Shown here piece after piece: positions 17,864-59,532 of a DNA stretch of 64,000 nucleotides; the stretch's first letter is position 1; every line of letters begins with the position of its first letter. Source of the stretch: Candidatus Saccharimonadales bacterium. GTDB taxonomy: Bacteria > Patescibacteriota > Saccharimonadia > Saccharimonadales > UBA4665. The notes beneath the pieces are model-generated. The model made no database searches, was not told the DNA's origin, and saw only the letters and a program-made list of their open reading frames with translations. The stretch is from NCBI GenBank assembly GCA_046350675.1, contig JAXLZZ010000008.1:5726-69725 (forward strand), read 5' to 3'. The translations under genes and the position numbers were made by a program.

Positions 17864-19864
17864 ATGTATTACTACTTCGTGTGGGTGCGCAGTAATCGCT
17901 ACCATGGCAGCGATCCGTTAACGTATTCGAGTGAACAAAAACTTACCACTGGTAGCGTGGTGCGCGTAGAACTGCAACGACAAGTGGTGATGGGCGTGGT
18001 GAGCGGCGTAACGACCGAGCCACGATTCAAGACCAAACCGATCACTGAAATCTTGGATATACCGCCTATTCCAGCGCCGTTACTCAAGACGGCGCAGTGG
18101 TTGCAAGCCTACTACCCTGCTCCTTTAGGGATTATCTCCCAGCAATTAATCCCCGCTTCGCTGACAGAGAAGCGACTGAAAGATACTTCGCCAACATTGT
18201 TTGATGTGCCAGATCTTTCTACATTGCCGAAGCTAACTCACGAGCAAACCGCTGCACTAGAAAAAATGACCGAGCGCGATACCTATTTACTGCACGGCGT
18301 AACGGGCAGCGGAAAAACACGCGTATATATAGAGCTAGTGGCACGAGCTATAGAAGATGGTAAATCTGCAGTTGTGCTGACACCAGAGATTAGCCTGACT
18401 TCGCAGCTGGCTAGTAATTTTGAAAGAATATTTGGCAATCGCGTGATTGTGCTCCACTCACAGCAAACACCAGCCGAGCGAGAGAAAGCCTGGTTGGCTT
18501 GCCTGCGTGCCACTGAGCCTGTGGTGGTGATCGGGCCGCGCTCTGCCCTGTTCAGCCCCGTTCAAAAACTAGGCATAATCATCCTCGATGAGGCACATGA
18601 ATCAGCCTACAAGCAAGAGCAGTCGCCGCAGTATCAAACTGTGCGCGTAGCTTCGTATTTGGCCGGCGTAACTCGGTCCAGCTTGGTGCTTGGGTCCGCA
18701 ACCCCATCTGTTAGTGACTATTATCTGGCTGAACGGAAGAAGAAGCCGATCATTGAACTGACAACTTTGGCCGCCAAAGCTGTCATCCTGAGCGAAGCCG
18801 AAGGATCTCGTACGAAAGAACAAACGGGATCTCTCGACTCAGCTCGAGATGACAGAGTTACAGTTGAGATTGTCGATAAGAAAGAATTCAGCCTATTCTC
18901 TAAGTCATCAATGCTCAGCCAGCCACTTTTGGATGCTATAAAAGCAGCTTTGTCGCGTGGCGAACAAACGCTACTGTATCTGAACCGACGCGGCACTGCC
19001 CGGATGGTGATGTGTGAACATTGTGGCTGGCAAGCTACCTGTCCACACTGTGATCTACCGCTGACGTATCATGGTGATAGTCATGAATTGCGCTGTCATA
19101 GCTGTAGCTATCACACCAACTCGCCCGGTAGCTGCCCAGCCTGCAAACATCCAACTATTATGTTCAAAACCGCGGGCACCAAGGCTGTTGCCGAAGAAGT
19201 AGAGCGATTATTCCCACAGGCAAAAGTAGCACGGTTCGACACCGACAACACCAAAGCCGAGCGCTTTGAACAGCAGTATCAAGGTATTCGCGACGGCAAG
19301 GTCGATATTCTAGTTGGTACGCAGTTACTAGCAAAAGGGTTGGATCTACCAAAACTCAGCACACTAGGAGTTATCCTGGCCGATACCAGCTTATATATGC
19401 CTGATTTCTCGGCCCAAGAGCGCACCTTCCAGCTCATCAATCAGGTGTTAGGGCGAGTGGGGCGAGGGCATGTGGCTGGACACGCCATTATCCAAACCTA
19501 CCATCCAGAACATCCGGCTTTGAAAGCGGCTATTGAGGCTGACTATCCAGCATTTTATAAGGCTGAGCTAGCGAGCAGAGAGAAATTCCTATTCCCCCCA
19601 CTCTGCTATTTGCTTAAGATAAGTGTTCGGCGCGCTTCCCTGAAAGCAACCGCGGCCGCGGCCGAGAAACTAAAGAAAGATATTCAAGAACAGGGGTATA
19701 AAGTCCGAGTGGAGGGCCCCGCACCATCATTCTACGAACGCTTTCAAAATAAGTACCAGTGGCAACTAGTAGTAAAAGCCACCGAACGCTCAGAACTCCT
19801 AAAAGTCATCGCCGGCCTACCGGCCAACTGCTCCTACGACATTGACCCGTTAGATTTACTCTAG
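17864..19864 (+). CDS. priA: primosomal protein N' (replication restart helicase PriA), carrying a 24-codon repeat-element insertion
   Basis: Walker A GVTGSGKT, DEAH box (ILDEAHES) and the Cys-rich zinc region CEHCGW..CPHC..CHSC..CPAC. Confidence 0.95.
   Translation: MYYYFVWVRSNRYHGSDPLTYSSEQKLTTGSVVRVELQRQVVMGVVSGVTTEPRFKTKPITEILDIPPIPAPLLKTAQWLQAYYPAPLGIISQQLIPASLTEKRLKDTSPTLFDVPDLSTLPKLTHEQTAALEKMTERDTYLLHGVTGSGKTRVYIELVARAIEDGKSAVVLTPEISLTSQLASNFERIFGNRVIVLHSQQTPAEREKAWLACLRATEPVVVIGPRSALFSPVQKLGIIILDEAHESAYKQEQSPQYQTVRVASYLAGVTRSSLVLGSATPSVSDYYLAERKKKPIIELTTLAAKAVILSEAEGSRTKEQTGSLDSARDDRVTVEIVDKKEFSLFSKSSMLSQPLLDAIKAALSRGEQTLLYLNRRGTARMVMCEHCGWQATCPHCDLPLTYHGDSHELRCHSCSYHTNSPGSCPACKHPTIMFKTAGTKAVAEEVERLFPQAKVARFDTDNTKAERFEQQYQGIRDGKVDILVGTQLLAKGLDLPKLSTLGVILADTSLYMPDFSAQERTFQLINQVLGRVGRGHVAGHAIIQTYHPEHPALKAAIEADYPAFYKAELASREKFLFPPLCYLLKISVRRASLKATAAAAEKLKKDIQEQGYKVRVEGPAPSFYERFQNKYQWQLVVKATERSELLKVIAGLPANCSYDIDPLDLL
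18782..18853 (+). mobile_element. 72-nt palindromic repeat element (GTCAT..CGAG / CTCGAGATGAC ends) inserted in frame in priA
   Basis: gtcatcctgagcgaagccgaaggatctcg-tacgaaagaacaaac-gggatctctcgactcagctcgagatgac. It has the same ends as the elements at 22265, 36120, 36505 and 59463. It starts on a codon boundary and encodes VILSEAEGSRTKEQTGSLDSARDD. Confidence 0.7.
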
Positions 19865-22264: not shown

Positions 22265-22347
22265 GTCATTTCGAACGCATGTGAGAGATCTCGGCAAGCC
22301 CGTGTGGACCCCGAGAGATTTCTCCCAGCTTCGCTACTCGAAATGAC
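22265..22347 (-). mobile_element. 83-nt ORF-less palindromic repeat element (reverse orientation)
   Basis: gtcatttcgaacgcatgtgagagatctcgg...ccgagagatttctcccagcttcgctactcgaaatgac. The gagaaatctc-type half is on the minus strand. It ends 9 nt from the stop codon at 22357-22359. Confidence 0.7.
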
Positions 22348-22356
22348 AGTGTGATA

Positions 22357-23028
22357 CTACTGTTGAGGAGATGGACCAGCTGGTGGCTGCTGCCCAGGAA
22401 ATTGCTGCTCAGGTGGCTGTTGATACTGCTGAGGGGCAGCTTGAGGCTGAGGCGGCTGGTATGGTTGCTGTGCTGGCTGTTGTTGAGGGGTAGCAAACTG
22501 ATCCTGTTGCGGCTGTTGATACTGGGGTTGTGGCTGTTGATACTGCTGAGGGGCAGCTTGAGGCTGAGGCGGCTGGTATGGTTGCTGTGCTGGCTGTTGT
22601 TGAGGGGTAGCAAACTGATCCTGTTGCGGCTGTTGATACTGGGGTTGTGGCTGTTGATACTGCTGAGGGGCAGCTTGAGGCTGCTGAGCTGCAGGCGCTG
22701 GTGCTTGTTGCACGTTGGCTTGGCTAGCCGCCAGAATCTGCGGTGCATTCTGAGCTACTTCGGCTTTTAGCTTGTCGAATTCTTGTTGCACGATCTCCTT
22801 ATAGTTCGGAAAATTGGTCTCTAGCCACTTAAAGGCACCGGCATCATCTTTTGCTTCAAAATAGCGCTCAAATTCATCGAGCTGTTCGTTTGTCATTTGG
22901 TCTGCTAGGCGCACGCCTACACGCATCTCTAACGTCTCATAGATGTGCTTTAGAAAGCTGTTCTTCTCTGTATCAGGCAAGCCTGCCAATCCGAGTTCCT
23001 GTAGTAAGTTATTATCTATCTTTAGCAT
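22357..23028 (-). CDS. hypothetical protein with globular N-terminal domain and Q/P-rich repeat tail
   Basis: 223 aa. The C-terminal half is QAAPQQYQQPQPQYQQPQQDQFATPQQQPAQQPYQPPQP repeated. Confidence 0.8.
   Translation of the reverse strand: MLKIDNNLLQELGLAGLPDTEKNSFLKHIYETLEMRVGVRLADQMTNEQLDEFERYFEAKDDAGAFKWLETNFPNYKEIVQQEFDKLKAEVAQNAPQILAASQANVQQAPAPAAQQPQAAPQQYQQPQPQYQQPQQDQFATPQQQPAQQPYQPPQPQAAPQQYQQPQPQYQQPQQDQFATPQQQPAQQPYQPPQPQAAPQQYQQPPEQQFPGQQPPAGPSPQQ
22415..22683 (-). repeat. 117-nt (39-codon) tandem repeat, about 2.3 copies, apparently identical
   Basis: ggctgttgatactgctgaggggcagcttgaggctg recurs at 22415, 22532 and 22649. Confidence 0.85.
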
Positions 23029-31170: not shown

Positions 31171-31797
31171 CACGGCTTTCGCCGTGCAATTATCAATTAT
31201 CAATTCGCAATTTACAATAAATTACCAATTATCAATTAACCATTGCCGCGAAAATCATGCTTGATGACCAACTCGGTGCTTATGAGATAGCTTGTTAACA
31301 AACGGGTGCTAATGCACCAATAACTAGTCAATTAAACACTTCTGATTCCAGAACACTGCATCTGTGTGCTCTATGGATATTTACAGCGAGGATCGGATGC
31401 GAGCTGTATGAAAATACTGCTCGGACCGAACCGGAACTGCAAATTCCGTAGAGTGCCAGAAACTGTTAGGAAAGACGGCTATGCCGGCTTTTTAACAGTG
31501 GTGCAATGTTCTGGTCGTAAAAAGTCAATGCCTCTATTAGTACGCTTCGACTACATACGTTACCGCACTTCCATCTTGCGCCTATCAACCTGATCGTCTT
31601 TCAGGGAGGTCATAGGGAAATCTAATCTTGAAGGAGGCTTCGCGCTTAATATGCTTTCAGCGCTTATCCCGTCCGCACGATAGCTACTCAACAATGCTCT
31701 TGGTAGAACAATTGATACACCAGCGGTGCGTTCAACCCGGTCCTCTCGTACTAGGGTCAACTCTTCTCAAATTTCCTTGCGTCCACAGCGGATATAA

Positions 31798-31831
<34 letters not shown>

Positions 31832-31859
31832 ACGTACCTCTTTAACCGGCGAACAGCCG

Positions 31860-31890
<31 letters not shown>

Positions 31891-32198
31891 AGATGAGCCG
31901 ACATCGAGGTGCCAAACAGCGCCGTCTATGTGAACTATTGGGCGCTATAAGCCTGTTATCCCCGGCGTAACTTTTATCCGAAAGCGCTGCCGATACCACA
32001 CTCTTGTACAAAAATGTACTGACAGCGGAAAACTTACTCCTACTTTCGTACCTGCTTGGATTGTACTCCTCACAGTCAAGCTAGCTTATGCGTATACACT
32101 ATCACTACGATTTCCATCCGTAGTTAGCTAACCTTTGAACGCCTCCGATACTCTTTAGGAGGCAACCGCCCCAGTTAAACTACCCACCAGACACGGTC

Positions 32199-32381
32199 CC
32201 AGAACCAGAAATCACACACAAACTATCTCTCTCAAGTCATTCCAATCTTGAATTGGAAACTAGTAATTTTGAGTGCCGATGGCACACTTAATATACTGGG
32301 TCCTGAATCAAGTTCAGGATGACGGAAAAAGGCTTATATGCACTTTGTGGTCCTGGTAAGAACAAGATCATAACAAGGGTG
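32199..32381 (-). other. 23S insertion 1 (about 140 extra nt, between E. coli-equivalent CCACCAGACAC.GTCC and GGGTGGTATTTCA, domain V near the L1-stalk side)
   Basis: About 183 nt here against about 40 nt in E. coli between the same conserved flanks. No ORF. Confidence 0.6.
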
Positions 32382-33401
32382 GTATTTCACGGATGACTCC
32401 ACCTAGGCTAGCGCCTAAGCTTCAAAGTCTCCCACCTATCCTACACATGTTATAACCCGGCTCAATGCCAAGCTGTAGTAAAGCTGCACGGGGTCTTCTC
32501 GTCCTGCTGCGGACAGACGGCATCTTTACCGTCAATGCACTTTCACCGAGCTCTTCGTCGAGACAGTGCCCATATCATTACGCCATTCGTGCGGGTCAGA
32601 ACTTACCTGACAAGGAATTTCGCTACCTTAGGACGGTTATAGTTACCGCCGCCGTTCACCGGGGCTTCAGTTTGAAGCGTGAACCTCTCCCCTTAACCTT
32701 CCGGCACCGGGCAGGCGTCAGCCCCTATACATCCACTTTCGTGTTAGCAGAGACCTATGTTTTTGGTAAACAGTTGCATGGGCTCCTTAGTTGCAGCCCC
32801 ATCACGCTACCCACAAAGTGGTTGCGCCATGAAGCAAGCTTCTAGGATTAAAAATCCAAGAAACTCGTTATATCATCACGCTCAGTTCCTTTCTGAGCAC
32901 TGTGATGGGGCAGGCCTTATTCCGAAGTTACGGCCGCTTGTTTGCCGAGTTCCTTGACGAAGAATCACTCGTACACCTTGGTCTTCTCGACCTGAGCACC
33001 TGTGTCGGTTTGCGGTACGGATAGTGTAATCCACGCGTTAAATTGCTTTTCTAGTCAGTACTTTGACCGGAATCGAACCTAATGGTTCTTTCATTCGTAG
33101 GCATTTCTCCTACTTAGACGGGTATAACCATGAACCCGCTCCGGCGAATATACCGCGCACATCTAACAAAACTACACTAGTACGGGAATATTAACCCGTT
33201 GTCCATCGCCTACGCTACGCGCCTCGGCTTAGGACCGACTAACCCTGGGACGATTACCGTGGCCCAGGAAACCTTGCTCTTTCGGTGGGCAGGATTCTCA
33301 CCTGCCTTATGGTTACTCATTCCAGCATTCTCACTTGATACCGCTCCACCGGACCTCGCAGTCCGACTTCAACGCTGATATCAACGCTCCTCTACCACTG
33401 A

Positions 33402-33572
33402 CGCTACGCACTCCGTGCTGAGCTTAATTGGCAATTAGCGATTTACAATTTACGATGAATTATCGATTAGCTATGAGCCATGATGCGACTTAATCGCTCC
33501 TGGCTAATTGCTAATTCATTGGTCATCGCTAATTGCTATTAGCTAATTGCGTTCAGCACAAAGTGCGTAACG
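33402..33572 (-). other. 23S insertion 2 at the helix 45 position (a classical IVS site), about 150 extra nt
   Basis: The closing stem pairs cgctacgcactccgtgctgagc with gcgttcagcacaaagtgcgtaacg. The interior is AT-rich 'aatt' words. The flanks match E. coli ACCGAAG.. and GGTAGGGGAGCGTT. Confidence 0.7.
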
Positions 33573-34087
33573 CCAATCCATATCTTCGGTGCTATGCTTA
33601 GCCCCGTTACATTTTCCGCGCGAGATCTCTTGACGAGTGAGCTGTTACGCACTCTTTAAATGAATGGCTGCTTCTAAGCCAACATCCTCGTTGTTTAAGA
33701 AATCTCACCTCGTTTCCCACTTAGCATAGACTTAGGGACCTTAGATGATGGTCTGGGCTGTTTCCCTTTTGAGCGACGAGCTTAGCCCCGCCGTTCTAAC
33801 TGCTGTAGTTCCACAGATGGTATTCGTAGTTTGTCAAGGGTGGGTAATCGTAAGACCCCCAGTCCGAAACAGAGCTCTACCCCCATCTGCTACCGTACAA
33901 CGCTAGCCCTAAAGCTATTTCGAGGAGAACCAGCTATCTCCGAGTTCGATTGGCATTTCACCTCTAACCACAGGTCATCCGGGCATTTTGAAACATGCTA
34001 CGGTTCGGCCCTCCACGCAGTTTTACCTGCGCTTCAGCCTGCCCATGGTTAGGTCACCCGGTTTCGGGTCTATTTATTGCTACTAAC

Positions 34088-34250
34088 GGGGTCTTATGGC
34101 TACCGGAATTGTCGTGAGAACTAAAATCAGTTGCCTGAAATTGCGGAAAATTTTTGAGGCGTATTGCATAATACGTCTCGGCAAATTTTACACAATTTAC
34201 AGACTCTGATTTTTGCTCTCGCGGTTCAATTCAGGCAGTCATAAGACCCC
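34088..34250 (-). other. 23S insertion 3, a long hairpin of about 145 extra nt (domain II, E. coli CUUAACUGGGCGUUAAG hairpin position)
   Basis: ggggtcttatggctaccgg pairs with (c)ggcagtcataagacccc. The interior has nested inverted repeats, with apical hairpin gaggcgtattgcataatacgtctc. Confidence 0.65.
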
Positions 34251-34605
34251 TTCGGCCTATTCAGCCTCGCTTTCACTACGCCTACGACAAATGTCTTAAG
34301 CTTGCAACAACAAATAACTCGCTGGATCGTTCTACAAAAAGCACGCCGTCACCAATAAATTGGCTCCGACTCCTTGTACGCACATAATTTCAGGATCTAT
34401 TTCACTCCCCTTCCGGGGTTCTTTTAACCTTTCCCTCACGGTACTTGTACACTATCGATCGTAAGATATATTTAGCCTTGGAAGGTGGACCTTCCAGATT
34501 CAATCAGGGTTTCACGTGTCCCGACCTACTCGACACTAGAAATGATAAAGTTCGTAACATTTGGCGTACCGGGCTATCACCGTCTTTGGCCAGACTTTCC
34601 AGACT

Positions 34606-34905
34606 GTTCTGCTCACATTACGAATTTCTTACTTTATGAGAATGGTGGTAGCACTCTCCTCCTTATGCAGGTTGCCGGCCGAAACCGGCCGCCCACAAAA
34701 GGGTATTTCTAGGTCACAACCCCTGGCTTGCATTCAGCTACCACTTTATTCAAGTGTCGCTTCACTCAAGAATTTTCAATTTACAAATAGCAATTTACAA
34801 ATAATTGACCAATGATCATTGATAATTCAATGAAAATTGAACATTGAGAATTGTTAATTGTTTGCTTGAAAAGTCCAGTGCGAAGCACTACTTGAAAGCA
34901 AACTA
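34606..34905 (-). other. 23S insertion 4, about 265 extra nt in domain I (between GCGAGCGAAC..-type and UCUGGAAAG-type conserved blocks)
   Basis: About 300 nt here against about 35 nt in E. coli. It contains caatttaca twice and a GC hairpin gccggccgaaaccggccgc. No ORF. Confidence 0.6.
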
Positions 34906-35629
34906 GGTTTGGGCTCATCCGCGTTCGCTCGCCACTACTTACGGAATCATTGGTTATTTTCTCTTCCTCTGGGTACTAAGATGTTTCAGTTCCCCAGCTT
35001 ACCGCTCTCCGATTCTATATATTCAAACCGGCGCCACTGGACATAACTCCAGCGAGGTTTCCCCATTCGGACATCTTCGGATCAAAGCATAGTAGGCTGC
35101 TCCCCGAAGCTTATCGCAGCTCCTCACGTCCTTCATCGGTATCTTACGTCAAGGCATTCTTTATGCGCGCTTGAGTAACTTTTTACGTTATATATGCACC
35201 AACCCGAAAGGATTGATACATACAGTGCAATTGACTAGTTATTGGTGATCCCAAAATATTTTTCATTTTACAGTTATCATTTACCGAATTAGTTGCCAGT
35301 TCCCATTTGTCATTTCTGAAAATGGTAATTTGAACAATAATTGGTTAATGAGAATTGCGTAAATGGTAATTGTTTAGGCCAATAGCCGTTTGTCTAATAG
35401 ATATACATACGAAAAAAATGTATATCTCAAATTGCTTATCTCTGAATCAATCTGCAAAAATTGATTCAATTTCTTCTATGAATTGTTAAGTTGCGAAACT
35501 CAAGAGGTTGTATCTGTTGACGCACATAAAAGTGCCACCCATCTATAACCCTTGAAGCTTGAGTTTACGATTGATTCCGCCTGGTGTATCCCCTACGGGC
35601 ATCTACCTAAACTCAAGCGACTCCAACTA

Positions 35630-35975: not shown

Positions 35976-36005
35976 GTCATTCCGAGCCTAAGCGAGGAAT
36001 CTCTC
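35976..36005 (+). mobile_element. left-end copy of the GIY-YIG element (gtcattccgagcctaagcgaggaatctctc)
   Basis: Homologous to the left end at 36120-36148 and followed by the same spacer type (..accccg/c..) and gene start. Confidence 0.6.
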
Positions 36006-36023
36006 TATACCCCGTATTGAGTC

Positions 36024-36080
36024 ATGAAAACATACTGGATTTACATTATGTCGAATCGTGCCAGAACTGTGCTTTATATT
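36024..36080 (+). pseudogene. 5' fragment (19 codons) of a GIY-YIG gene, truncated by another element end
   Basis: atgaaaacatactggatttacattatgtc... has its first 29 nt identical to 36166-36194 (MKTYWIYIMSNRARTV). It is interrupted at 36081 by tgtcatctcgag. Confidence 0.65.
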
Positions 36081-36119
36081 TGTCATCTCGAGTCCCTCCG
36101 TCCTTTCGAACCTCCCTCC

Positions 36120-36454
36120 GTCATTTCGAACGAAGAGAGAAATCTCTCCAAACCCCCTAAGGACTATGAAAACATACTGGATTTACATTATGTCTAACCG
36201 CGCGAGAACTGTTATGTATATAGGTGTAACCAACAATTTGGAAAGACGAGTTTTCGAGCACCAGTCCGGAGCCATTTCTGGTTTTACAAAACTCTACAAC
36301 TGTACTGATTTGGTCTATTACGAAGAGGCTGGTTCGCCTTTACCTGCAATTGAACGTGAAAAAGAGCTTAAGAAATGGTCGAGGAACAAGAAAGACCAAC
36401 TTATTCGCGACTTTAATCCTCTTTTGAGAGATCTCTCAGTATCTTCGAGATGAC
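36120..36454 (+). mobile_element. 335-bp candidate autonomous element: 29-bp imperfect terminal inverted repeats flanking a GIY-YIG nuclease gene
   Basis: The left end is gtcatttcgaacgaagagagaaatctctc. The reverse complement of the right end is gtcatctcgaagatactgagagatctctc. They match at 22 of 29 positions, including the outer 11 nt (with 1 mismatch) and the inner tctctc. Confidence 0.6.
36166..36453 (+). CDS. GIY-YIG nuclease family protein (COG2827/UPF0213-like, 95 aa)
   Basis: MKTYWIYIMSNRARTVMYIGVTNNLERRVFEHQSG..GFTKLY....LVYYEE......AIEREKELKKWSR.KK..LI...NP..RDL. The track's longer ORF (from 36058) reads through repeat sequence. Confidence 0.85.
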   Translation: MKTYWIYIMSNRARTVMYIGVTNNLERRVFEHQSGAISGFTKLYNCTDLVYYEEAGSPLPAIEREKELKKWSRNKKDQLIRDFNPLLRDLSVSSR

Positions 36455-36504
36455 ATACCTAATTATTTCGGCCGTCCCCCTGTAATTTCGACCCCTCCTC
36501 TTCT

Positions 36505-36582
36505 GTCATTTCGAGCAAAGCGAGAAATCTCTTGCTACTAAATAACTCAGTTGCTACAAATCCCTTGTGCCTTCGAGATGAC
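36505..36582 (+). mobile_element. 78-nt ORF-less repeat element
   Basis: gtcatttcgagcaaagcgagaaatctct...ttcgagatgac. It ends 9 nt from the stop codon of the giant gene (36592-36594). Confidence 0.65.
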
Positions 36583-36591
36583 AAACCGTAC

Positions 36592-39500
36592 TTACTCGAC
36601 GATGAAGTAGTCGAAGGTATACGTGGTATTAGGCGCCAGGGTCTGACCGGTGCTGAGCATGAAGTCGTTGACCGTCTTGCCCTTAGGATAGATGCGGGAG
36701 TTGACGCTGTTATCATCCTGGCCGGTCAGCAACACTTTAGGCGTCTTGCCGAAGACCTTGCTGAAGTCCACCTTGGTCAAGTCGCCAGCACTGACCCCTG
36801 TTGCACCGGTGGTAATGGTAATTGTGCCCGAGGTGTCATTACCGTCGATATTGACCGCCGCACCACTGCCGGCTGCCGTCAGGATATTACCCACCGGCGC
36901 CCCGCCCTTGGTAATGATATGTCCACTGACTTCTATATCAGCAACCTTAAGCGTGGTAACTGTTAGCGTGCCTTCAATATCGGCGTCACCTGTAACTGTT
37001 AGGGCAGCTATGCTTGCGCTATTGGTTACGGTTAAGCTGCCGGTGGTTGCAGACCCAGCTACAGATAAATCTCCGTCTATCGCAGCGTTACTTGTTACAT
37101 TAAGCGATTGAAGCGTGCTGGTCCCTGAAGCGTTTAAACCACCGCTAAAGCTGGCAGTGCCACTGTTCGAGATATTAGTGCTATTAAGTTGAGCGGTACT
37201 AAAGCTGGTGTTATAGCCATTTAGCTTGTTGACGATGGCCTTTTCACCGCCCCATAGGTAGCCATAGACACTGAACCAATCGGGTTGCGGGTTACCGTTG
37301 CTGTCGTTTGTTGGCGTTAGATTCGCAGGTAAATATTCTGATATTACGCCGGTACGTACCCCCGCCGCCCCGTCATTCCATTCGTAGTTAAATATAGGAG
37401 TTGCAGATATTTCACCCAGAATGCGATCAAGATTTACTTCGTCTATCTGGTTGATATTGTGCTTGTAGTTTTGTGAGCTAGAACAGTTAGATAGTATGTT
37501 TGAGCCATTCCTACACACGGGATTACCTGCTCCGCCAGCAACTAGACTAGTCTGAATTATGCCCGTAACGATTAAGTTTTGACCGACATTAGTATCAGCT
37601 CCGGAGTTTAGGCTACCCACTGCGGTAACATAGCCTGCGGCAATTATCCAGTTATCAGAGAAAATACCAGATCCTGCCCTCAGGTAAGTCGAAGATTTGA
37701 TGTAAGTACCGTCATTATACAGGTAAGCACCGGATTGGCCGCTAAGCCAAAATGAACCACCCAAAAACAGTCCGGTATTAGAGTACAGGCCATAGGAGTT
37801 GTGCGAACCGAGGTACCAACTCGTCTGATCGCCGCCGCCCAAATCTGTACGACCCGGATATATGTATCCAGCCGTTCGCAAACCACCAGATCCAAGATAT
37901 GCAACATGGGTTCCACCGGTGTTATTTGCTAAGAACTGTATCCAGCCAGATTTAGTGTATAACTCGTTGTAGGTGCCGCCACCATAAGCTATGTTTTGAC
38001 TAGCACTCTGTAAATATGACCCTGTGTTTATAGCGCCCGTGGAACTTATAGTGCTGGAGCCAGTTACAGCGCCAGTCACGGCTAGGGTTGATGAAATAGC
38101 CGCTGTGCCGGAGACTTGCAGTGTGGCGCCACCGCTGGTCACTGATGAGCCGATACCGACTTCTCCCGTTGAAGCAACAACTAAGCGTCGTGTCAGCGAG
38201 GTGTCAGAAGTTAGTGATTTGGTAGCAATATACACATTACCCGCACCACCGCCAGCGCTATTAGCCTGTATATCAGTACCGATGCTGGCGTATCTTCCTA
38301 TGTTGGTGTCGGCAACAGCGCCAAGCACTACTTCACCGCCGCCGTTAACTGTAAAGCTATTATTAGTGAGCAAGATACGAGCGTCCTTTTGGCCGACTGT
38401 GGTCGAAGTCGTTGCTGGGCCAGTAACAGTTAGCGTATTACCAAGACTCGTTGTGCTGGTAACTGCAAGTGTACTCTGTAGCGTGGTTGCCCCGGCTACG
38501 ACGAGAGCATCATCGGTCTTTAGGGTGTTGCTAGTAGAGCGATATAGATTGGTATCTGTACCGAATGTTATGCCAGTACTAGCTGTTCCGCCAGTTCCTC
38601 CGAGCTGTAATGAGTAAGTGTCAGCTGCCCCAATATAGATACCGACGTCACTAGATCCAGCTGTCTGAGGGTCAACATATATTCCATAATTATTGGTTAT
38701 TGTACCTCCACCGCTATTTATTGCAGCCTGGGCATATAGACCGTACGCTGTACTAATTGTGCCTGTGCTGCTATTTTGTATAACACCGTTTACTCCGTAA
38801 GCATTACTAATACTTCCGGTATTTGAATTAGTGATTATCCCGCGCACACCGTAGCCAGAACCCAAAGTAGCACCGGCAACAGTGTTTTGGGTATTTCCGT
38901 AAATACCAAACAACCTAGAATTTGCATTCACATTTGTGTTGCCTACAGTTGTATTACTTGTGAATGATACAAAGTCTGTCAGAGATCCAGGTGCGCTTGC
39001 TGGCGACACTGTCAAATTATTTGATGTCATTGTATTTACACCAGAAATTGCAGTACTTGTAAGCGATAAGGTGTTGCTTGATCCAGATACTGTTATGCCA
39101 GCTTGTCCAGTGATTGAGCCCACCACAGATAAAGAGTCGTCTGTTTTTAATGTATCCGCCGCGGAGCGGTAAAGGTTCGTATCACCGCCAATTGTTATGC
39201 CGGTGTTTGAGCCAGTTGATGAAAGTTGCAATGTTGTTTTACCGCCAGCGTTGCTTACGGTCAAAGCCGAGCCAGTACTGACCGTACCAGAAGCCGAAGT
39301 GAGTGTTAGAGCGGCGCTGCCACCTGACTGAATGCTCAAGTAACCTGTGCTGCTTAGACTTCCGTCAGATAAAGTGGTGCTGCCAGCACCAACCACCACA
39401 CCGCCGAGGAAATAACCCTGGAAGAAACGGTTACTTTGGGTTGCGTAATCGTTAGCGCTGGTAACAGCACCGATATTCTGAGCCGTGTATTTAGTGATCG

Positions 39501-42500
39501 TCGCATTTCCTGTGAATCCAGCCGTCGTGCCATAACTGACCGCCGGACTAATTGTAAGTGTGGTCGTGCCACCACCCGCGGTGATGCGAGTATAGTAATC
39601 TTGTCCGCTACCGCCGGTGTTATCTACAAAAATAATATCGCCATTCGCAAAAGCGCCGGCCGCAGACAGTGTAATAGTTGTAACATTTGTGCCTCCCGTG
39701 CCGCTGGTTGTACCCGTAGTGCCAGTCGCCACCGCATTGGCTACCAGGTCGCCGTTAGCAATCAGCTTATTGTTGCTGGTTGTATCAGCTGTAAATAGTG
39801 CATTGCCGCCGGAATTTTGAATCTGGAATTTAGTAGCGCTATTGCCCCCAGCGGCACCGCCTATCATAAGCGCATCGTCGGTGGTTAAAGTGTCTGCTGC
39901 ACTGCGGTAGAGGTTGGTGTCGCCACCGATAGTGATGCCTGTGTTACTGCCAGTTGAGCTGAGTTGTAGTGTTGTCTTACCGCCGTTGTTGCTGATATCC
40001 ACGGCCGACCCCGTGCCAACCGTTCCCGAGGCGGAGGTCAGCGTCAATTGACTGCTGCCGCCCGACGCGACTGCGAGCGCGCCATTGGCTGTGAGGTTAA
40101 GTGAGGTGCCAAGGCTAACGGTATTTGAGCCACCTTGTAGCGTAAGGTTACCAATAGTGGTGCTAATAGTGCTGGCTGCGCCAGCCGTGACAGTGATAGC
40201 GCTCGCGCTCACGAGACTGATAGCTCCGGCTGCGCTGTTGCCAATGCTCACGGTGCCGGTGCTTGTACCGGTGTTGATATTAGTGTTGTTGTTGCTGTTA
40301 TTGTTGAGCTGGACGGTGCCGCCGGCGATTGTGCTAGCACCGGTAATTGTCGCGCCGCCAGCCGAGACAGTCAGGCCACCACTGGTAACGGTCGCGCCGC
40401 TAGCTACCGTCAGTGTACCGGCAATCGTAGAACTACCGATGCCATTGACAGTTAGAACGCCTGCTTGAACACTATCACCTGCTTCGTTGACGCTGTACTT
40501 ACTGCTGCCATTGACCTGTAGATTGATCAAGTTGCCGGTAAAACCATTGGCAGCGTTAATCACCGTGTTGCCGGCGTAGGTCAAGGTGGTGCCAGACTCG
40601 CTCAGACCAGAGTCTGCAACGGTGTTAGAAGCAGTAAACTTGGCCAATTTGCCCGGGGTACCGCTACCCAGCACGCCGCCGCCCGTACCTGCACAGTTGG
40701 CCAGAGTCAGCAGACAGACGGTGTCACTAGAGCCACCGGCGATACTCGGGAGCTGGATGGTGGCGTTACCGGTGCCGGTAGGATTCAAGCCCTGTAGCAC
40801 GACTAGTCGTGAGGATGTGGAGTTGGCCAGATTCAAGCTACCTGTGACCGATGCGCCAACGCCAAGCGTCAGTCCGCCTGCTCCCTGCACCGCCACCGTA
40901 CCCGTAAAGTTAGCGCTGCTACTGATAGTCTGGCCGTTGATTAGACCGGAAGTGATAGTTCCGCTGCCGGCATTGATGTTGGCGTTGTTGGTGACAATAC
41001 CCCCATTGGCATTGAGTTGACCAGTCAAGGTGGTGGCACCGGTTACGGCTAGGGTTGATGAAATAGCCGCTGTGCCGGAGACTTGCAGTGTGGCGCCACC
41101 GCTGGTCACTGATGAGCCGATACCGACTTCTCCCGTTGAAGCAACAACTAAGCGTCGTGTCAGCGAGGTGTCAGAAGTTAGTGATTTGGTAGCAATATAC
41201 ACATTACCCGCACCACCGCCAGCGCTATTAGCCTGTATATCAGTACCGATGCTGGCGTATCTTCCTATGTTGGTGTCGGCAACAGCGCCAAGCACTACTT
41301 CACCGCCGCCGTTAACTGTAAAGCTATTATTAGTGAGCAAGATACGAGCGTCCTTTTGGCCGACTGTGGTCGAAGTCGTTGCTGGGCCAGTAACAGTTAG
41401 CGTATTACCAAGACTCGTTGTGCTGGTAACTGCAAGTGTACTCTGTAGCGTGGTTGCCCCGGCTACGACGAGAGCATCATCGGTCTTAAGCGTGTCGGCA
41501 GCTGAGCGGTAGAGGTTGGTGTCAGTGCCGATAAGCAGTCCCCCCGAAGAGCCAGTGGCCAGCACGCTCAAGCGGCCGTTGGAGTCAATGGTTAGTCTCT
41601 GAGCACCGGCGGTCTCGTCGGATATCGAGAAGGTACCGGCACGCGAACCAACCACAAACTGTCGACCCGTTCCTGACGCAGTATCACTGAAGTACATGCT
41701 GGCAGCGTTCCAGACTACAGAGCTGTCGCCCGTCAGTTCAATCGGGCCGCCCTGGACACCAAACTTGCTGCCACCGCTATAGCCACCGACCGATAAGTAG
41801 CCACCGATGGCGGCGTTGTTCGTAACAGATAGGGCCGTACCTGCTGCACTGAAGGTATTGGCAGCACTAAAGTTGTTGGCTTGGTTCAAGTAGGCCACAT
41901 TATTGAGGGTGCCTGCGGTGTTGATGTTGGCCCCACCCAGCTGGATGGCGCCGGTGGCGTTGAAAGTGCCGGTAGCCGTTATCACGCTGCCACTTTCACT
42001 CAACAATGAGTCACCAATCGTCCCAGCACCGGTGAACTTAGCAATCGTGCCGGTAGTACCGCTGCCGGTGATGCCACCGCCACTGCCAGCACAGTTGCCC
42101 AGGGTGACAAGACAGACATCATCAGTTGAGCCACCGGCGATAGTCGGAATACGAATGGTGGCATTACCAGTACCACTTGGGTTAAGACCCTGAATGATAA
42201 CCTGTCGTGAAGATGATGAGTTTGCTAGGTAGAGACTGCCGGCAGTGGTACCTGGTGTACCAATACTGACACTAGCTCCTTGGACAGCCAGGGTGCCGGT
42301 GAAGACAGGGCTACTGACAATGTCGAGCGTATTGCTGCTGAAGCCACCACCAGCGGTGCCGCTGACCGTACCAGTCAGATTACCGCTGCCGGTGAAGCTC
42401 AGGCTAGTGTTACCTTGGGCGGCGGTGCCGCTGGTAGAACCGTAACTCACATTAAGCGTTGTGCTACTACCAAGAGCTACACTACCACCGCCGGTCAAGC

Positions 42501-45500
42501 CAGTACCAGCAGTAACAGTGAGAGCACCGCTACCTACCAGACGAGCGTTGGCGACAGTGCCGGTTGTAATAGCGGTACCGTTGAGGTTTGTTAGAGCTGA
42601 AGCATTGAGTGCTGGCAAGTAGCCTGAGCCATCAAGCTGTACGAGCTGGTTAGCGCCGTTGAAGGTGTTGCCCTGGAGCGTAACGTTGCTGCTGAGATAG
42701 GTGTCTCCGACCGTACCAGAGCTGATGTTGCTGCCGTTGAGGTTCGTTATACCTGAGCCATTGCCAGTGAAGGTATTGCTACCAATGTTGATATTGCCAA
42801 ACCCACTAGCGATGCTACCAGCACTCAGGGCTCCGGTGCCGGTGATGTTGCTGAAGGTACCAGCCTGCAAATCGGCGTTGACAATTGCGCCGGTACTCAA
42901 CACCCCACTCCCATTGGTGTGGACGACACCGGCGCTGTTAAGGCCAGAGAAAGTGATGGTGCCAGCGGCGGTCAAGCCACCACTGATACTAGCACCGCCG
43001 GTTGTAACACTGAGAGCTCCATTGAGAGTTAGGCCAGCAAAGGTTGGTGTGGCAGCAGTGCTGATGCCTTGGATAGTGTTGACCGTACCACTACTGACAC
43101 TGAAGTTAGTACTGTTGAACTGGGCGATGCCCTTCTGTGAAGTTGAAGCGTCGTCGATGGTGATGGTGCCAGCCGAACCGCTGGAGTTGGCTAGAGTCAG
43201 TACGCCGGTCTGGCCATCCAGACTGGTCACGCCACCGCCGGCGCCGCCAGTACAAGCGGCGAAGCTCAAAACGCCGGAACCATTAGACTGAAGGCAGTCG
43301 CCGTTCGCTCCCGCTGTGGTTGGCAGGGTGAGTGTGAAGGTAGAGCCCGAAACGCCGGACTGGAGCGTCACGGTATTACCATTGGTAGCATTCTTGAAGG
43401 CGATAGAACCTGTGTTTGTGCTAGCGGTGCCCAGTGTTAGGCTGCCACTACCTTGCACTACAACACTGCCCGAGGCCGTCACCACACTGCCCGACTCACT
43501 CAAGCTGGAATCGGCGATAGTGCCGCTACCAGTAAACTTAGCAATCTGGCCGCTCGTGCCAGAGCCAGTGATACCGCCACCACTACCGGCACAGTTGCCT
43601 AGAGTTACCAGGCAGACATCATCAGTACTACCACCAGCTATGCTTGGGATTCTAATGGTGGCATTACCGGTACCACTTGGGTTTAGACCTTGCAGTATGA
43701 CTTGGCGGGAGGAGCTAGCATTAGCTAGGTATAAGCTACCAGCTGTAGTACCTGGTGTACCAATACTGACACTAGCTCCTTGGACAGCCAGGGTGCCAGT
43801 GAAGTTCGCACTGGAGCTGATGGTTTGGCCGTTATAGGTGCCACCGGTGACGGTGCTAGCTACAGCAAGTGTGCCAGTGAAATTAGCGGCACTAGAGATA
43901 GTCTGACCATTGATGTTGCCAGAAGTGATAGTGCCACCAATACTCACGTCATTCGTCACACTCAACGCCGTACCAGCCGCACTGAAGGTATTGGCTGCAC
44001 TGAAGTTATTAGCTTGGTTCAAGTAGGCGACGTTGGTAAGCGTGCCTGCTGTATTGATGTCTGCGCCACCAAGCTGTAATGCGGTCGTGGCATTGACGGT
44101 ACCGCCCTGGACGGTAGCAGTGGTAGTGATGTTATTGCCTGTAGAGATAGTGCCAAACCCACTAGCGATGCTACCAGCACTCAGGGCTCCGGTGCCGGTG
44201 ATGTTGCTGAAGGTACCGCTGGCTAGGTTGCTATTGGTGATCTTACCATTGACGATGGCACTGCCGTTGTACTGGAGGACATCACCACTGCTTATTGAGC
44301 TGATGGTCAGTGTAGTACCTTGGAGCTTGGCAATGGTTGGGTTTGGATAGGTGCCGGTTAGGTCACCACCAGCTGCACCAGAAGCACCGGCACAGTTGCC
44401 AAGGGTGTAGAGACACACCGTATCTGTACTACCACCAGCTATGGTTGGGAATTGGATGGTGGCATTCCCCGTACCGCTTGGGTTTAAGCCCTGTAGGATG
44501 ACTTGGCGAGATGAGCTAGAGTTGGCGAGGTAGAGTGAGCCAGTAGTGGTACCTGGTGTACCAATACTGACACTAGCTCCTTGGACAGCTAGGGTACCGG
44601 TGAAGACAGGGCTACTGACAATGTCGAGCGTATTGCTGCTGAAGCCACCACCAGCGGTGCCGCTGACCGTACCAGTCAGATTACCGCTGCCGGTGAAGCT
44701 CAGGCTAGTGTTACCTTGGGCGGCGGTGCCGGCCCCACTGCCATAGGTGACACTCAACGTCGGCGTGCTGCCTGCTCCGCTGTTGCCAGTGGTACTGAGG
44801 CCGGTGAGTGTACCGAGAGTGGCCACGTAGTTACCCGTGGTCTCTGAGCCCAGAGCTACAGCGCCGGTACTCAACACCCCACTCCCATTGGTGTGGACGA
44901 CACCGGCGCTGTTAAGGCCAGAGAAAGTGATGGTGCCAGCGGCGGTCAAGCCACCACTGATACTAGCACCGCCGGTTGTAACACTGAGAGCTCCATTGAG
45001 AGTTAGGCCAGCAAAGGTTGGTGTGGCAGCAGTGCTGATGCCTTGGATAGTGTTGACCGTACCACTACTGACACTGAAGTTAGTACTGTTGAACTGGGCG
45101 ATGCCCTTCTGTGAAGTTGAAGCGTCGTCGATGGTGATGGTGCCAGCCGAACCGCTGGAGTTGGCTAGAGTCAGTACGCCGGTCTGGCCATCCAGACTGG
45201 TCACGCCACCGCCGGCGCCGCCAGTACAAGCGGCGAAGCTCAAAACGCCGGAACCATTAGACTGAAGGCAGTCGCCGTTCGCTCCCGCTGTGGTTGGCAG
45301 GGTGAGTGTGAAGGTAGAGCCCGAAACGCCGGACTGGAGCGTCACGGTATTACCATTGGTAGCATTCTTGAAGGCGATAGAACCTGTGTTTGTGCTAGCG
45401 GTGCCCAGTGTTAGGCTGCCACTACCTTGCACTACAACACTGCCCGAGGCCGTCACCACACTGCCCGACTCACTCAAGCTGGAATCGGCGATAGTGCCGC

Positions 45501-48500
45501 TACCAGTAAACTTAGCAATCTGGCCGCTCGTGCCAGAGCCAGTGATACCGCCACCACTACCGGCACAGTTGCCTAGAGTTACCAGGCAGACATCATCAGT
45601 ACTACCACCAGCTATGCTTGGGATTCTAATGGTGGCATTACCGGTACCACTTGGGTTTAGACCTTGCAGTATGACTTGGCGGGAGGAGCTAGCATTAGCT
45701 AGGTATAAGCTACCAGCTGTAGTACCTGGTGTACCAATACTGACACTAGCTCCTTGGACAGCCAGGGTGCCAGTGAAGTTCGCACTGGAGCTGATGGTTT
45801 GGCCGTTATAGGTGCCACCGGTGACGGTGCTAGCTACAGCAAGTGTGCCAGTGAAATTAGCGGCACTAGAGATAGTCTGACCATTGATGTTGCCAGAAGT
45901 GATAGTGCCACCAATACTCACGTCATTCGTCACACTCAACGCCGTACCAGCCGCACTGAAGGTATTGGCTGCACTGAAGTTATTAGCTTGGTTCAAGTAG
46001 GCGACGTTGGTAAGCGTGCCTGCTGTATTGATGTCTGCGCCACCAAGCTGTAATGCGGTCGTGGCATTGACGGTACCGCCCTGGACGGTAGCAGTGGTAG
46101 TGATGTTATTGCCTGTAGAGATAGTGCCAAACCCACTAGCGATGCTACCAGCACTCAGGGCTCCGGTGCCGGTGATGTTGCTGAAGGTACCGCTGGCTAG
46201 GTTGCTATTGGTGATCTTACCATTGACGATGGCACTGCCGTTGTACTGGAGGACATCACCACTGCTTATTGAGCTGATGGTCAGTGTAGTACCTTGGAGC
46301 TTGGCAATGGTTGGGTTTGGATAGGTGCCGGTTAGGTCACCACCAGCTGCACCAGAAGCACCGGCACAGTTGCCAAGGGTGTAGAGACACACCGTATCTG
46401 TACTACCACCAGCTATGGTTGGGAATTGGATGGTGGCATTCCCCGTACCGCTTGGGTTTAAGCCCTGTAGGATGACTTGGCGAGATGAGCTAGAGTTGGC
46501 GAGGTAGAGTGAGCCAGTAGTGGTACCTGGTGTACCAATACTGACACTAGCTCCTTGGACAGCTAGGGTACCGGTGAAGACAGGGCTACTGACAATGTCG
46601 AGCGTATTGCTGCTGAAGCCACCACCAGCGGTGCCGCTGACCGTACCAGTCAGATTACCGCTGCCGGTGAAGCTCAGGCTAGTGTTACCTTGGGCGGCGG
46701 TGCCGCTGGTAGAACCGTAACTCACATTAAGCGTTGTGCTACTACCAAGAGCTACACTACCACCGCCGGTCAAGCCAGTACCAGCAGTAACAGTGAGAGC
46801 ACCGCTACCTACCAGACGAGCGTTGGCGACAGTGCCGGTTGTAATAGCGGTACCGTTGAGGTTTGTTAGAGCTGAAGCATTGAGTGCTGGCAAGTAGCCT
46901 GAGCCATCAAGCTGTACGAGCTGGTTAGCGCCGTTGAAGGTGTTGCCCTGGAGCGTAACGTTGCTGCTGAGATAGGTGTCTCCGACCGTACCAGAGCTGA
47001 TGTTGCTGCCGTTGAGGTTCGTTATACCTGAGCCATTGCCAGTGAAGGTATTGCTACCAATGTTGATATTGCCAAACCCACTAGCGATGCTACCAGCACT
47101 CAGGGCTCCGGTGCCGGTGATGTTGCTGAAGGTACCGCTGGCTAGGTTGCTATTGGTGATCTTACCATTGACGATGGCACTGCCGTTGTACTGGAGGACA
47201 TCACCACTGCTTATTGAGCTGATGGTCAGTGTAGTACCTTGGAGCTTGGCAATGGTTGGGTTTGGATAGGTGCCGGTTAGGTCACCACCAGCTGCACCAG
47301 AAGCACCGGCACAGTTGCCAAGGGTGTAGAGACACACCGTATCTGTACTACCACCAGCTATGGTTGGGAATTGGATGGTGGCATTCCCCGTACCGCTTGG
47401 GTTTAAGCCCTGTAGGATGACTTGGCGAGATGAGCTAGAGTTGGCGAGGTAGAGTGAGCCAGTAGTGGTACCTGGTGTACCAATACTGACACTAGCTCCT
47501 TGGACAGCTAGGGTACCGGTGAAGACAGGGCTACTGACAATGTCGAGCGTATTGCTGCTGAAGCCACCACCAGCGGTGCCGCTGACCGTACCAGTCAGAT
47601 TACCGCTGCCGGTGAAGCTCAGGCTAGTGTTACCTTGGGCGGCGGTGCCGGCCCCACTGCCATAGGTGACACTCAACGTCGGCGTGCTGCCTGCTCCGCT
47701 GTTGCCAGTGGTACTGAGGCCGGTGAGTGTACCGAGAGTGGCCACGTAGTTACCCGTGGTCTCTGAGCCCAGAGCTACAGCGCCGGTACTCAACACCCCA
47801 CTCCCATTGGTGTGGACGACACCGGCGCTGTTAAGGCCAGAGAAAGTGATGGTGCCAGCGGCGGTCAAGCCACCACTGATACTAGCACCGCCGGTTGTAA
47901 CACTGAGAGCTCCATTGAGAGTTAGGCCAGCAAAGGTTGGTGTGGCAGCAGTGCTGATGCCTTGGATAGTGTTGACCGTACCACTACTGACACTGAAGTT
48001 AGTACTGTTGAACTGGGCGATGCCCTTCTGTGAAGTTGAAGCGTCGTCGATGGTGATGGTGCCAGCCGAACCGCTGGAGTTGGCTAGAGTCAGTACGCCG
48101 GTCTGGCCATCCAGACTGGTCACGCCACCGCCGGCGCCGCCAGTACAACTGTCAAAGCTGAGGTTACCGCTAGCGTCCGTAATCAAGCAGTCACCGTTAG
48201 CGCCAAGATCAGTTGGCAGCGTCAGATTGAAGCTAGAATTGGCAACACCGGATTGCAACGTCACAGTGTTGGCATTAGTGTCATTGTTGAACACAATCGC
48301 CCCATTAACCGTGGAACCTACACCGAGCACCAACCCACCTCCACCCTGTGCCGTAACCGTCCCGCTAAAGGTCGGGTTATTGATAATGCTGATATCACTA
48401 CAAGCACCCCCGGACCCAAGCGTAATCACATCGCCGCCGCCGCTCAGATTGCCGGTGCCGCTGGCACAGGTCAGCGTTACGTTACCCTGGACGGCCGTGC

Positions 48501-54418: not shown

Positions 54419-54495
54419 TGGTGGGCGATGAGGGATTCGAACCTCCGACCTCGTCATTATCAGTGACGCGCTCTAACCAACTGAGCTAATCGCCC
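54419..54495 (-). tRNA. tRNA-Ile (anticodon GAU), CCA encoded
   Basis: The reverse complement is gggcgattagctcagttggttagagcgcgtcaCTGATAAtgacgaggtcggaggttcgaatccctcatcgcccacca. It forms a cloverleaf with an acceptor of 7 bp. My fold leaves one A-C mismatch in the T stem. Confidence 0.9.
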
Positions 54496-54651
54496 TGGCT
54501 TTTGTTTTACAAAAGCAATTATCAGATAGCAATTTTCATTTTTCAAGTATGGCCAGCTGGTGCTGATACTATTATTTCAAAAGCCAGCGGCTTTTGTCCT
54601 ACATTGGTAAATGAGAATTGTAAATTGTTAATTGCTTTACGTAGTAAAGCT

Positions 54652-54728
54652 TGGTGGAGACACGGGGACTCGAACCCCGGACCCCCTGCTTGCAAAGCAG
54701 GTGCTCTAGCCAACTGAGCTATGTCCCC
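54652..54728 (-). tRNA. tRNA-Ala (anticodon UGC), CCA encoded
   Basis: The reverse complement is ggggacatagctcagttggctagagcacctgcTTTGCAAgcagggggtccggggttcgagtccccgtgtctccacca. The G3-U70 identity pair is present. Confidence 0.93.
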
Positions 54729-56460: not shown

Positions 56461-57925
<1,465 letters not shown>

Positions 57926-59123: not shown

Positions 59124-59462
59124 ATACCTACTATAGCAAGCCTTAACTGCCTGTCTGTTAATAATCCCTCGCCTTCAGCGAGGCGCCATGGCGGTTGTGC
59201 GAGCATCAACAGTCGTAACGTGATTTGAAAGCTGTGAAAGCAACAATTCTTGTTTTGGACTCTGCTGAGTGAGATTCCTATGGAATCTATAACGAGCGAA
59301 GTCGACTGAAAGGAGATGTTCAAAACATTGTTGCGCTTTACAGCATTCAAGTCAGGTGGAGGCTGTGCTCTTGGGTTTTTGCCTACTTTTGGGCTAAGCC
59401 AAAAGCTTGCCCTCAACTAGATTGGGGGTAGGAACTTGGTTCTTTGTTGAAAGAACATAGGT

Positions 59463-59523: not shown

Positions 59524-59532
59524 AGTTGAGGG

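Follow-up and report, generated by a model that had tools for sequence, protein, structure and literature searches.

The DNA analysed here is a stretch of 64,000 nucleotides from a Candidatus Saccharimonadales genome (contig JAXLZZ010000008.1; hereafter the window), which carries at 35976-36582 a gene for a small GIY-YIG nuclease framed by inverted hairpin repeats. Judged from its sequence, this locus is probably (we estimate the probability at about 0.8) an Ssn-type nuclease cassette with its cognate hairpin repeats, called SRM, in a variant form of the repeat. The gene, the single hairpin repeats (heads) and the gene-less inverted pairs of heads (dimers) are linked, conserved and covarying, and copies have reached new sites. 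The original prediction, made from the window alone, had taken the locus for a transposon-like pair of elements belonging to no described system. However, the association of gene and repeat, the biochemistry of the enzyme and the layout resembling an insertion sequence (IS) were published in 2025, and the CGTC-tagged REP repeats in 2013; the locus is a further example of the Ssn/SRM system and not a new kind of element.

The Ssn family (CDD cd10448) comprises single-domain GIY-YIG nucleases, the ssnA product being 94 aa long, and its enzymes were studied from Neisseria meningitidis, N. elongata, N. wadsworthii and Wolbachia (Chenal et al., Nat Commun 2025, PMC11893778). A repeat lies near the gene in 71% of the Ssn homologues and on both sides of it in 42% (PMC11893778). 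The SsnA protein of N. meningitidis binds the oriented repeat CGTCATTCCCGCGMAVGCGGGAATCYRG only as single-stranded DNA (ssDNA) and cuts a few nucleotides upstream; cutting depends on the three nucleotides before the palindrome, binding depends on the C after it, and mutation of Y6, Y17 or E64 kills the enzyme (PMC11893778). In the same species, the SsnA system lowers transformation by DNA bearing the NTS repeat, and NTS-ssnA-NTS was noted to resemble an insertion sequence, with domestication proposed by analogy to REP/RAYT; whether and how SRM repeats spread was left open (PMC11893778).

The nuclease gene and its framing repeats

The 95-aa protein encoded in the window matched the Pfam GIY-YIG domain PF01541 (E=1.4e-16) over residues 4-76, with no second domain, and thus has the size and build of an Ssn protein (about 94 aa, less than 150 aa, a single GIY-YIG domain). 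The alignment of 26 homologues showed that Y18 is invariant and that Y7 and E65 are nearly invariant; at an inferred offset of one residue, these correspond to Y6, Y17 and E64 of SsnA (positions from PMC11893778). The window protein is 53% identical to that of locus L027, whose gene is flanked by TGTCATTCCCGCGAAAGCGGGAATCTCT, a sequence agreeing with the Neisseria NTS consensus at 25 of 28 positions. Comparison of the nuclease genes of the window, L016 and L011 gave a ratio of non-synonymous to synonymous substitution (dN/dS) of about 0.10 with a synonymous divergence (dS) of 1.4-1.9, corresponding to strong purifying selection. The nearest solved structures are those of UPF0213 proteins (PDB 1YWL and 1ZG2, E=2e-4); no specific family for the protein was found in NCBIfam, and PADLOC, which holds no model for it, returned no match. 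By analogy with the characterised enzymes, the window protein is very probably a repeat-directed ssDNA nickase.

The predicted framing of this gene by inverted ends was borne out: the two arms (36120-36152 and 36422-36454) are 33 nt long, inverted and 76% complementary. The left stem reads ATTTC/GAAAT and the right one ATCTC/GAGAT, followed by CTCTC. The right arm covers the last nine codons of the gene (LRDLSVSSR) and its stop, and the inner part of this arm, GAGATCTC, encodes the C-terminal D-L(-S) motif, present in the gene as R-D-L-S. The closest homologues (66-78% identical) end in RDLSxxSR and read through the same right arm. Since the D and L of the motif are conserved in nearly all family members, including those whose repeat lies past the stop, the overlap between arm and coding sequence is a trait of this lineage.

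The association of gene and repeats was then examined across genomes. The homologue scan, with one genome per species, gave 80 loci from many phyla. For each of 86 genes, the 150 nt upstream were aligned to the reverse complement of the 85 nt around the stop, with 2961 controls of the same geometry. Forty of the 86 homologues (47%) scored above the 99th percentile of the controls and 52 above the 95th. TGTCAT/ATGACA termini recur across phyla; the inner part of the arm varies, yet the left and right arms remain complementary. Full heads become sparser away from the gene, from 1.48 per kb at 0-299 nt to 0.26 at 300-999 nt, 0.08 at 1-3 kb and 0.03 at 3-10 kb, a difference of about 45-fold between the gene's vicinity and distant DNA. 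The association between gene and ends, for which a survey of other genomes had been suggested, is thus supported.

Among relatives, the cassette occupies three genomic contexts. In the window its neighbours are genes for proteins of 67 and 4927 aa; in both L011 and L016 it is flanked by a staphylococcal-nuclease-like (SNase) gene and a glycosyltransferase gene; in L013 it has the FtsI gene on one side and, on the other, a 115-aa gene that occupies the ftsL position in the division cluster. The framing TGTCATYTCGA...GAGARATCTC - gene - AGATCTCTC...TCGAGATGAC is kept in all three, and the non-coding left arm is identical at 28 of 30 positions between the window and L016, though the synonymous sites of the gene are saturated. 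No cassette-empty allele of the SNase/glycosyltransferase or ftsI sites was present among the loci examined.

Heads, half-repeat arrays and gene-less dimers

The pattern GTCATYYCGAR occurred 10 times in the window against 0.13 expected, a count reached in 0 of 100 shuffles. The tag is one base longer than first described, with TGTCAT in 11 of 12 ends and CGTCAT in the remaining one. Read on its own strand, a head has the layout (T/C)GTC - AT - NNN - GA - NN - loop of 3-4 nt - NN - GA - N'N'N' - AT - C - TC. Each arm is therefore a small hairpin with a tandem G.A/A.G step in its stem, preceded by a fixed tag and followed by a fixed C; two of the nine stem positions are G.A/A.G, the loops are mostly of 3-4 nt, and the tail is CTC(TC), not CCA. 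The window holds ten full heads (six on the plus and four on the minus strand) and a decayed one at 36582. The GTC before the palindrome and the C right after it, in fixed orientation, were found in both cassette arms and in the ten window heads. No Rfam family reached its gathering score at the repeats.

A class-specific pattern that imposes no complementarity was searched in about 165 non-redundant loci of many phyla and retrieved 213 heads in 51 loci. The outer three stem positions of these heads pair in 93% of cases, compared to 66% when the partners were permuted (500 permutations, maximum 69%). Eight fully complementary stem variants were present: TTC/GAA (48 heads), TCC/GGA (33), TCT/AGA (30), CCT/AGG (20), GTC/GAC (18), CTC/GAG (17), CCC/GGG (10) and CTT/AAG (8). 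The palindrome is followed by C in 199 of the 213 heads, and GTC is preceded by T in 187 and by C in 15.

We found also arrays of half-repeats, with a period of about 20-22 nt, that precede full heads and consist of the tag, the 5' half of the stem and a C/T-rich filler, the 3' half being absent. They are located at 36082-36119 and 36466-36504 in the window, at 345-381 in L004, at 1000-1650 in L086 and at 9800-10470 in L048; in L086 the arrays run outward from both cassette ends, and L048 is similar. A copy of the head's own first 10 nt (at most two mismatches) lies within 70 nt upstream of 48 of the 213 heads, where about 5 in total would occur by chance, with spacings that peak at 20-22, 40-44 and 61-66 nt. 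Successive tags near ssn genes likewise show a spacing peak at 20-22 nt. The array hosts include Alphaproteobacteria, Chloroflexota, Clostridia, Calditrichota, Gammaproteobacteria and Roizmanbacteria, and 32 of the 35 arrays are within 1 kb of an ssn gene. By their position, the half-repeats appear to sit where the enzyme is expected to cut.

These arrays change the interpretation of the cluster at 35976-36582. The original count of four left and two right ends stands for motif matches (35976, 36082, 36120 and 36505 on the plus strand, 36454 and 36582 on the minus strand), but the one at 36082, like its neighbour at 36100, is a half-repeat of about 20 nt and not a full end. The surplus left ends, attributed earlier to nested or iterative self-insertion, are instead a tandem half-repeat array of the kind that recurs in many phyla. 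The predicted duplicate of the gene's 5' end at 36024 was recovered, with its first 29 nt identical, as a part of a tandem duplication in which the left end, the spacer and the gene start are repeated about 143 nt upstream with 81-88% identity.

The four gene-less palindromes of 61-83 nt that had been reported at 18782, 22265, 36505 and 59463 have the coordinates and sizes given for them. All four pair one CTC/GAG-type head with one head of another type. The gene-less copies thus retain the arm type that encodes RDLS, though nothing constrains them to encode it, which fits dimers derived from the cassette ends or continuously matched to them.

One of the dimers lies in frame within priA, and its site was compared in 80 metagenomic loci with priA relatives. 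The corresponding loop was filled in four of the 80: the dimers of L103 and L102 are complete but differ in stem subtype, and both again pair a CTC/GAG-type head with another type, whereas the left arm has decayed in L099 and both arms in L100. At least 30 priA orthologues are empty, their loop being the short LAQxxDHxxTEVxVVD. In a bootstrapped neighbour-joining tree (623 columns, loop masked, 41 taxa), the window with L099, L102 with L103, and L100 with the empty L109 were each grouped with 100% bootstrap, and the five filled taxa were monophyletic in 0 of 100 replicates. Therefore, either the loop received at least three insertions or a single ancient insert was precisely removed on many occasions; from these sequences, the priA element is in either history one that has moved. 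The expected difference between orthologous sites in presence or absence of the element was accordingly observed, between species and at priA.

No such polymorphism was detected among the strains of the species that were compared. Nine of ten contigs with an identical nuclease match the window cluster, and the tenth, L004, differs by a variant first head, by two further half-repeat units ahead of this head and by diverged upstream DNA. Identity between L004 and the window is about 78% in the region of the 67-aa gene upstream and rises to 98.6% precisely where the first head is reached (35975/35976); this step looks like a recombination junction at the repeat. Near the gyrA-side dimer, a 23-nt indel, GCTTGCCCTCAACTAGATTGGGG (59405-59427), is present in the window and absent from L179 and L180 of the same species; within it lies CCCTCAACT, which in reverse complement equals the 9-nt spacer (59524-59532) that separates the dimer from the gyrA stop. 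The GyrA protein encoded at 59533-62139 is identical to MFO0781961.1, which carries the annotation 'Candidatus Saccharimonadales bacterium'.

The outer repeat end ATGAC lies exactly 9 nt from the stop of a converging gene at three places of the window (36583-36591, 59524-59532 and 22348-22356) and in L011 (10266-10274). As a general rule, a fixed stop-to-tag distance of 9 nt was rejected: across loci this spacing is only a weak mode, found for 5 of the 40 heads with an open reading frame (ORF) stop within 40 nt. The 223-aa protein that converges on the dimer at 22265 (22357-23028, minus strand) has a C-terminal half made of a Q/P-rich tandem repeat of QQPQPQYQQPQQDQFATPQQQPAQQPYQPPQPQAAPQQY, and its exact sequence was absent from the public protein collection.

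The neighbourhood of the cluster has further peculiarities. The giant ORF at 36592-51375 (minus strand, 4927 aa) contains kilobase-scale internal repeats and is rich in G, S, T, A and N, like a giant surface protein. The rRNA genes are all on the minus strand yet split over 31056-57924, the 16S gene (56462-57924) and tRNA-Ala/tRNA-Ile (54419-54728) being parted from 23S/5S by the 4927-aa gene, the nuclease cluster and the 67-aa gene. The 23S match (31516-35185, minus strand) extends over 3670 nt compared to 2925 nt for the model, corresponding to about 745 nt of extra inserted sequence; ORFs of at least 110 aa were absent from the rRNA strand, and no intron family attained its Rfam gathering score.

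Table 1. Positions of the nuclease gene, repeat heads, half-heads and gene-less dimers in the window.
Feature	Position	Strand	Description
ssn-like gene	36166-36453	+	95-aa single-domain GIY-YIG nuclease; AAGGA ribosome-binding site 4 nt upstream of ATG
Full repeat head	35976-36005	+	TGTCAT TCC GA GC-CTAA-GC GA GGA AT C TCTC; opens the upstream truncated cassette copy; folds as ssDNA into (((((..((....))..)))))
Truncated duplicate of the first 19 nuclease codons	36024-36080	+	88% identical to 36166-36221; first 29 nt identical
Two tandem half-heads	36082-36099, 36100-36119	+	Tag, 5' stem half and C-rich filler; without 3' half
Left head of intact cassette	36120-36148	+	CGTCAT TTC GA AC-GAA-GA GA GAA AT C TCTC
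Right head of cassette	36426-36454	-	TGTCAT CTC GA ... GA GAG AT C TCTC; overlaps codons RDLSVSSR and stop
Two decayed half-heads	36466-36481, 36482-36504	+	Precede the next full head at 36505
Gene-less dimer	36505-36582 (78 nt)	+	Left head intact; right head decayed to terminal TCGAGATGAC; 9 nt from the stop of the 4927-aa gene; ssDNA fold z=-2.9
Gene-less dimer	18782-18853 (72 nt)	+	In frame in priA (ORF 17864-19864, 666 aa), adds VILSEAEGSRTKEQTGSLDSARDD; fold z=-3.0
Gene-less dimer	22265-22347 (83 nt)	+	Arm types in opposite order; 9 nt past the stop of 22357-23028 (-); fold z=-3.3
Gene-less dimer	59463-59523 (61 nt)	+	9 nt past the gyrA stop (59533-62139, -); fold z=-1.0

Possible mechanism and alternative explanations

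By analogy with the enzymes of Chenal 2025, the protein would bind a head only as folded ssDNA, would recognise the GTC tag that precedes the stem and the C that follows it, and would nick the same strand a few nucleotides 5' of the tag. The cassette and each dimer would then be nicked once just beyond either end, in opposite strands. Nicks of this kind, arising at replication forks or in incoming DNA, may start the copying or recombination that spreads dimers, and may also create junctions such as the identity step seen in L004. One possible gain for the host would be control of recombination with incoming DNA, as in Neisseria. Heads and dimers appear to have spread to new sites in the lineage, and the cassette appears to have changed its genomic place; the system would therefore behave like a REPIN/RAYT pair in which a GIY-YIG nickase replaces the HUH enzyme. 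That the window nuclease is itself the agent spreading the repeats is possible, with odds somewhat below even. Still more tentative is the wider proposal that an Ssn nickase spreads YGTC-tagged dimers as a GIY-YIG counterpart of REPIN/RAYT, the arrays being footprints of cutting and copying, and the refilling of priA reflecting a choice of site and not tolerance alone.

Several observations weigh against the assignment to Ssn/SRM or against mobility of the repeats. The published SRM motif, HGTCWYN(0-2)YYVSBRHN(0-5)WNVSBRGN(0-2)RNCYNB, has no match on either strand of the whole window, because its position B excludes the A of the G.A step, and it matches within 500 bp of only 7 of the 86 homologues. 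Single arms folded as ssDNA with nearest-neighbour energies were no better than shuffles (z=-0.15 to -0.9), a result that we treated as uninformative because the energies used give no credit to tandem G.A pairs. The 64 kb contain only one intact copy of the gene, and no target-site duplication was found at any repeat end, whether of the cassette, the dimers or the priA copies. No strain lacks the gyrA-side dimer: each of the four other contigs of the species carries it. Finally, a single nick in each strand is not enough to account for excision or insertion.

The strongest alternative, although we consider it unlikely, is that the repeats are kept for a host function independent of mobility, either as 3'-end hairpins (mRNA stabilisers or terminators) or as marks that limit recombination, the nuclease being a domesticated partner as proposed for Neisseria. 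In its favour, the three intergenic dimers are all placed 9 nt after the stops of minus-strand genes, many such repeats were argued to be transcribed (PMC3733652), transformation by NTS-bearing DNA is lower in the presence of SsnA (PMC11893778), and the identity step at the first head of L004 looks like a recombination junction. However, the promoter and terminator scan of the cluster gave nothing above shuffles and no T-run terminators; the in-frame priA copy cannot be a 3'-end signal, and the 9-nt spacing is weak across loci. Moreover, a host function accounts for the persistence of the repeats, but not for the arrival of copies at new sites.

It is still less likely that the 335-bp unit is an autonomous IS with the GIY-YIG protein as its transposase and the gene-less palindromes as currently active miniature inverted-repeat transposable elements. 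The layout, with inverted ends around one gene, is that of an IS; the dimers keep both arm types of the cassette, which itself occurs in three contexts among relatives, a truncated second copy adjoins the intact one, and the priA site is filled or empty. But the 64 kb hold one intact and one truncated copy, neither target-site duplication nor polymorphism among strains of the species was seen, and the known chemistry of the family is an ssDNA nick, without covalent intermediate or strand transfer (PMC11893778). In addition, two species keep the cassette at the same SNase/glycosyltransferase site, although the neighbouring orthologues are only 75% and 58% identical. This shared site, together with the saturated dS and the dN/dS of 0.1, gives the pattern of a gene that is passed on vertically and kept by its host, as RAYTs are.

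A free-standing GIY-YIG homing endonuclease, cutting an empty allele and spreading by break repair, is very improbable. In its favour is a weak match of the protein to the group I intron endonuclease model TIGR01453 (E=0.0027, 17.8 bits compared to a cutoff of 56), but the protein has only 95 aa and no DNA-binding domain, the gene lies outside introns, inteins and phages, the genes closest to it are chromosomal and have hairpin repeats on their flanks, and the dispersed gene-less dimers would be left unexplained. Lastly, an accidental inverted repeat, in which a conserved gene 3' end merely resembles an unrelated upstream hairpin, could draw on the near-invariance of the D and L encoded by the inner right arm, but is refuted by the covariation of the arms across phyla with fixed TGTCAT termini, by the 40 of 86 genes above the 99th percentile of controls, by the right arm being on its own strand a complete head with tag, stem and C, by the pairing of the stems, and by the gene-less dimers, which share the asymmetric arm pair including the RDLS-encoding arm.

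Relation to known systems

The preferred reading extends the Ssn/SRM system to a genome of the Saccharimonadales, within the candidate phyla radiation (CPR). The G.A-step repeats are a large class that the published motif misses, found here in 51 of about 165 loci and in many phyla, and current counts of repeat-bearing genomes are therefore likely underestimates. The priA loop filled in three clades, the dimers that keep the cassette's unlike arms and the phased half-repeat arrays at expected cut positions are data that bear on how the repeats spread. The G.A-class repeat and its enzyme are also a candidate new specificity for the development of ssDNA tools. No account of the half-repeat arrays, of the repeatedly filled priA site or of the overlap with coding sequence seems to exist in the literature searched, in which searches by the repeat sequences returned unrelated papers only (mostly eukaryotic gene-expression studies) and no later follow-up on Ssn was found; the main text of PMC11893778 makes no mention of half-repeat arrays or of Patescibacteria.

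Among other GIY-YIG proteins, the homing endonucleases (I-TevI, Seg proteins) share the catalytic fold but have DNA-binding domains and cut duplex DNA. The UPF0213 proteins are likewise single GIY-YIG domains of about 100 aa, but form a separate subfamily (E about 2e-4) with no known repeat partner. Elements of the IS200/IS605 type resemble the window system in that end hairpins are recognised as ssDNA and insertion occurs without target duplication; in these elements, however, both ends are cut on the same strand and rejoined by the transposase, whereas the heads of the window are on opposite strands and no joining activity is known.

The REPIN/RAYT systems (REPtrons) are alike in having one conserved, vertically inherited nuclease gene framed by inverted hairpins, with dispersed inverted doublets, and an enzyme that recognises a folded single strand and a short tag, as the window protein would do according to the biochemistry of its family. 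They differ by the covalent tyrosine intermediate of the HUH enzyme and the GTAG tag, compared to a hydrolytic GIY-YIG nick and a YGTC tag here. Membership in REPIN/RAYT, which needs an HUH-Y1 enzyme and GTAG REPs, was rejected, and the likeness is one of layout only.

The CGTC-tagged REPs have a CGTC or TGTC tag and a stem that opens with A-T, and occur mostly as dimers (Di Nocera et al. 2013, PMC3733652). They include dRS3 of Neisseria and RPE-4 and RPE-6 of Rickettsia, some are inside replication or repair genes, many were argued to be transcribed, and they were said to 'lack a dedicated transposase', no dedicated enzyme having been found (PMC3733652). The window repeats share with them the CGTC/TGTC tag, the A-T/T-A opening of the stem, the prevalence of inverted dimers, often of two unlike units, and the presence of copies within genes, the priA copy being in frame as for the RPEs. 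The stem is of 8-9 bp in these REPs and G.A-interrupted here, the loop 4-5 nt compared to 3-4 nt, and the tail CCA compared to CTC(TC).

The closest likeness is that to Ssn/SRM itself. In both systems the protein consists of one GIY-YIG domain, has about 94-95 aa and shares its catalytic positions, the gene is flanked by inverted, oriented hairpins with a (C/T)GTC tag, an A-T stem opening and a C after the stem, and there are many further genomic copies of the repeat; the fraction of flanked homologues was 47% here and 42% in PMC11893778. The window differs by the tandem G.A/A.G step in the stem, by a downstream repeat that overlaps the last nine codons of the gene, and by its host, the Saccharimonadales (CPR), which are not named in the main text of PMC11893778.

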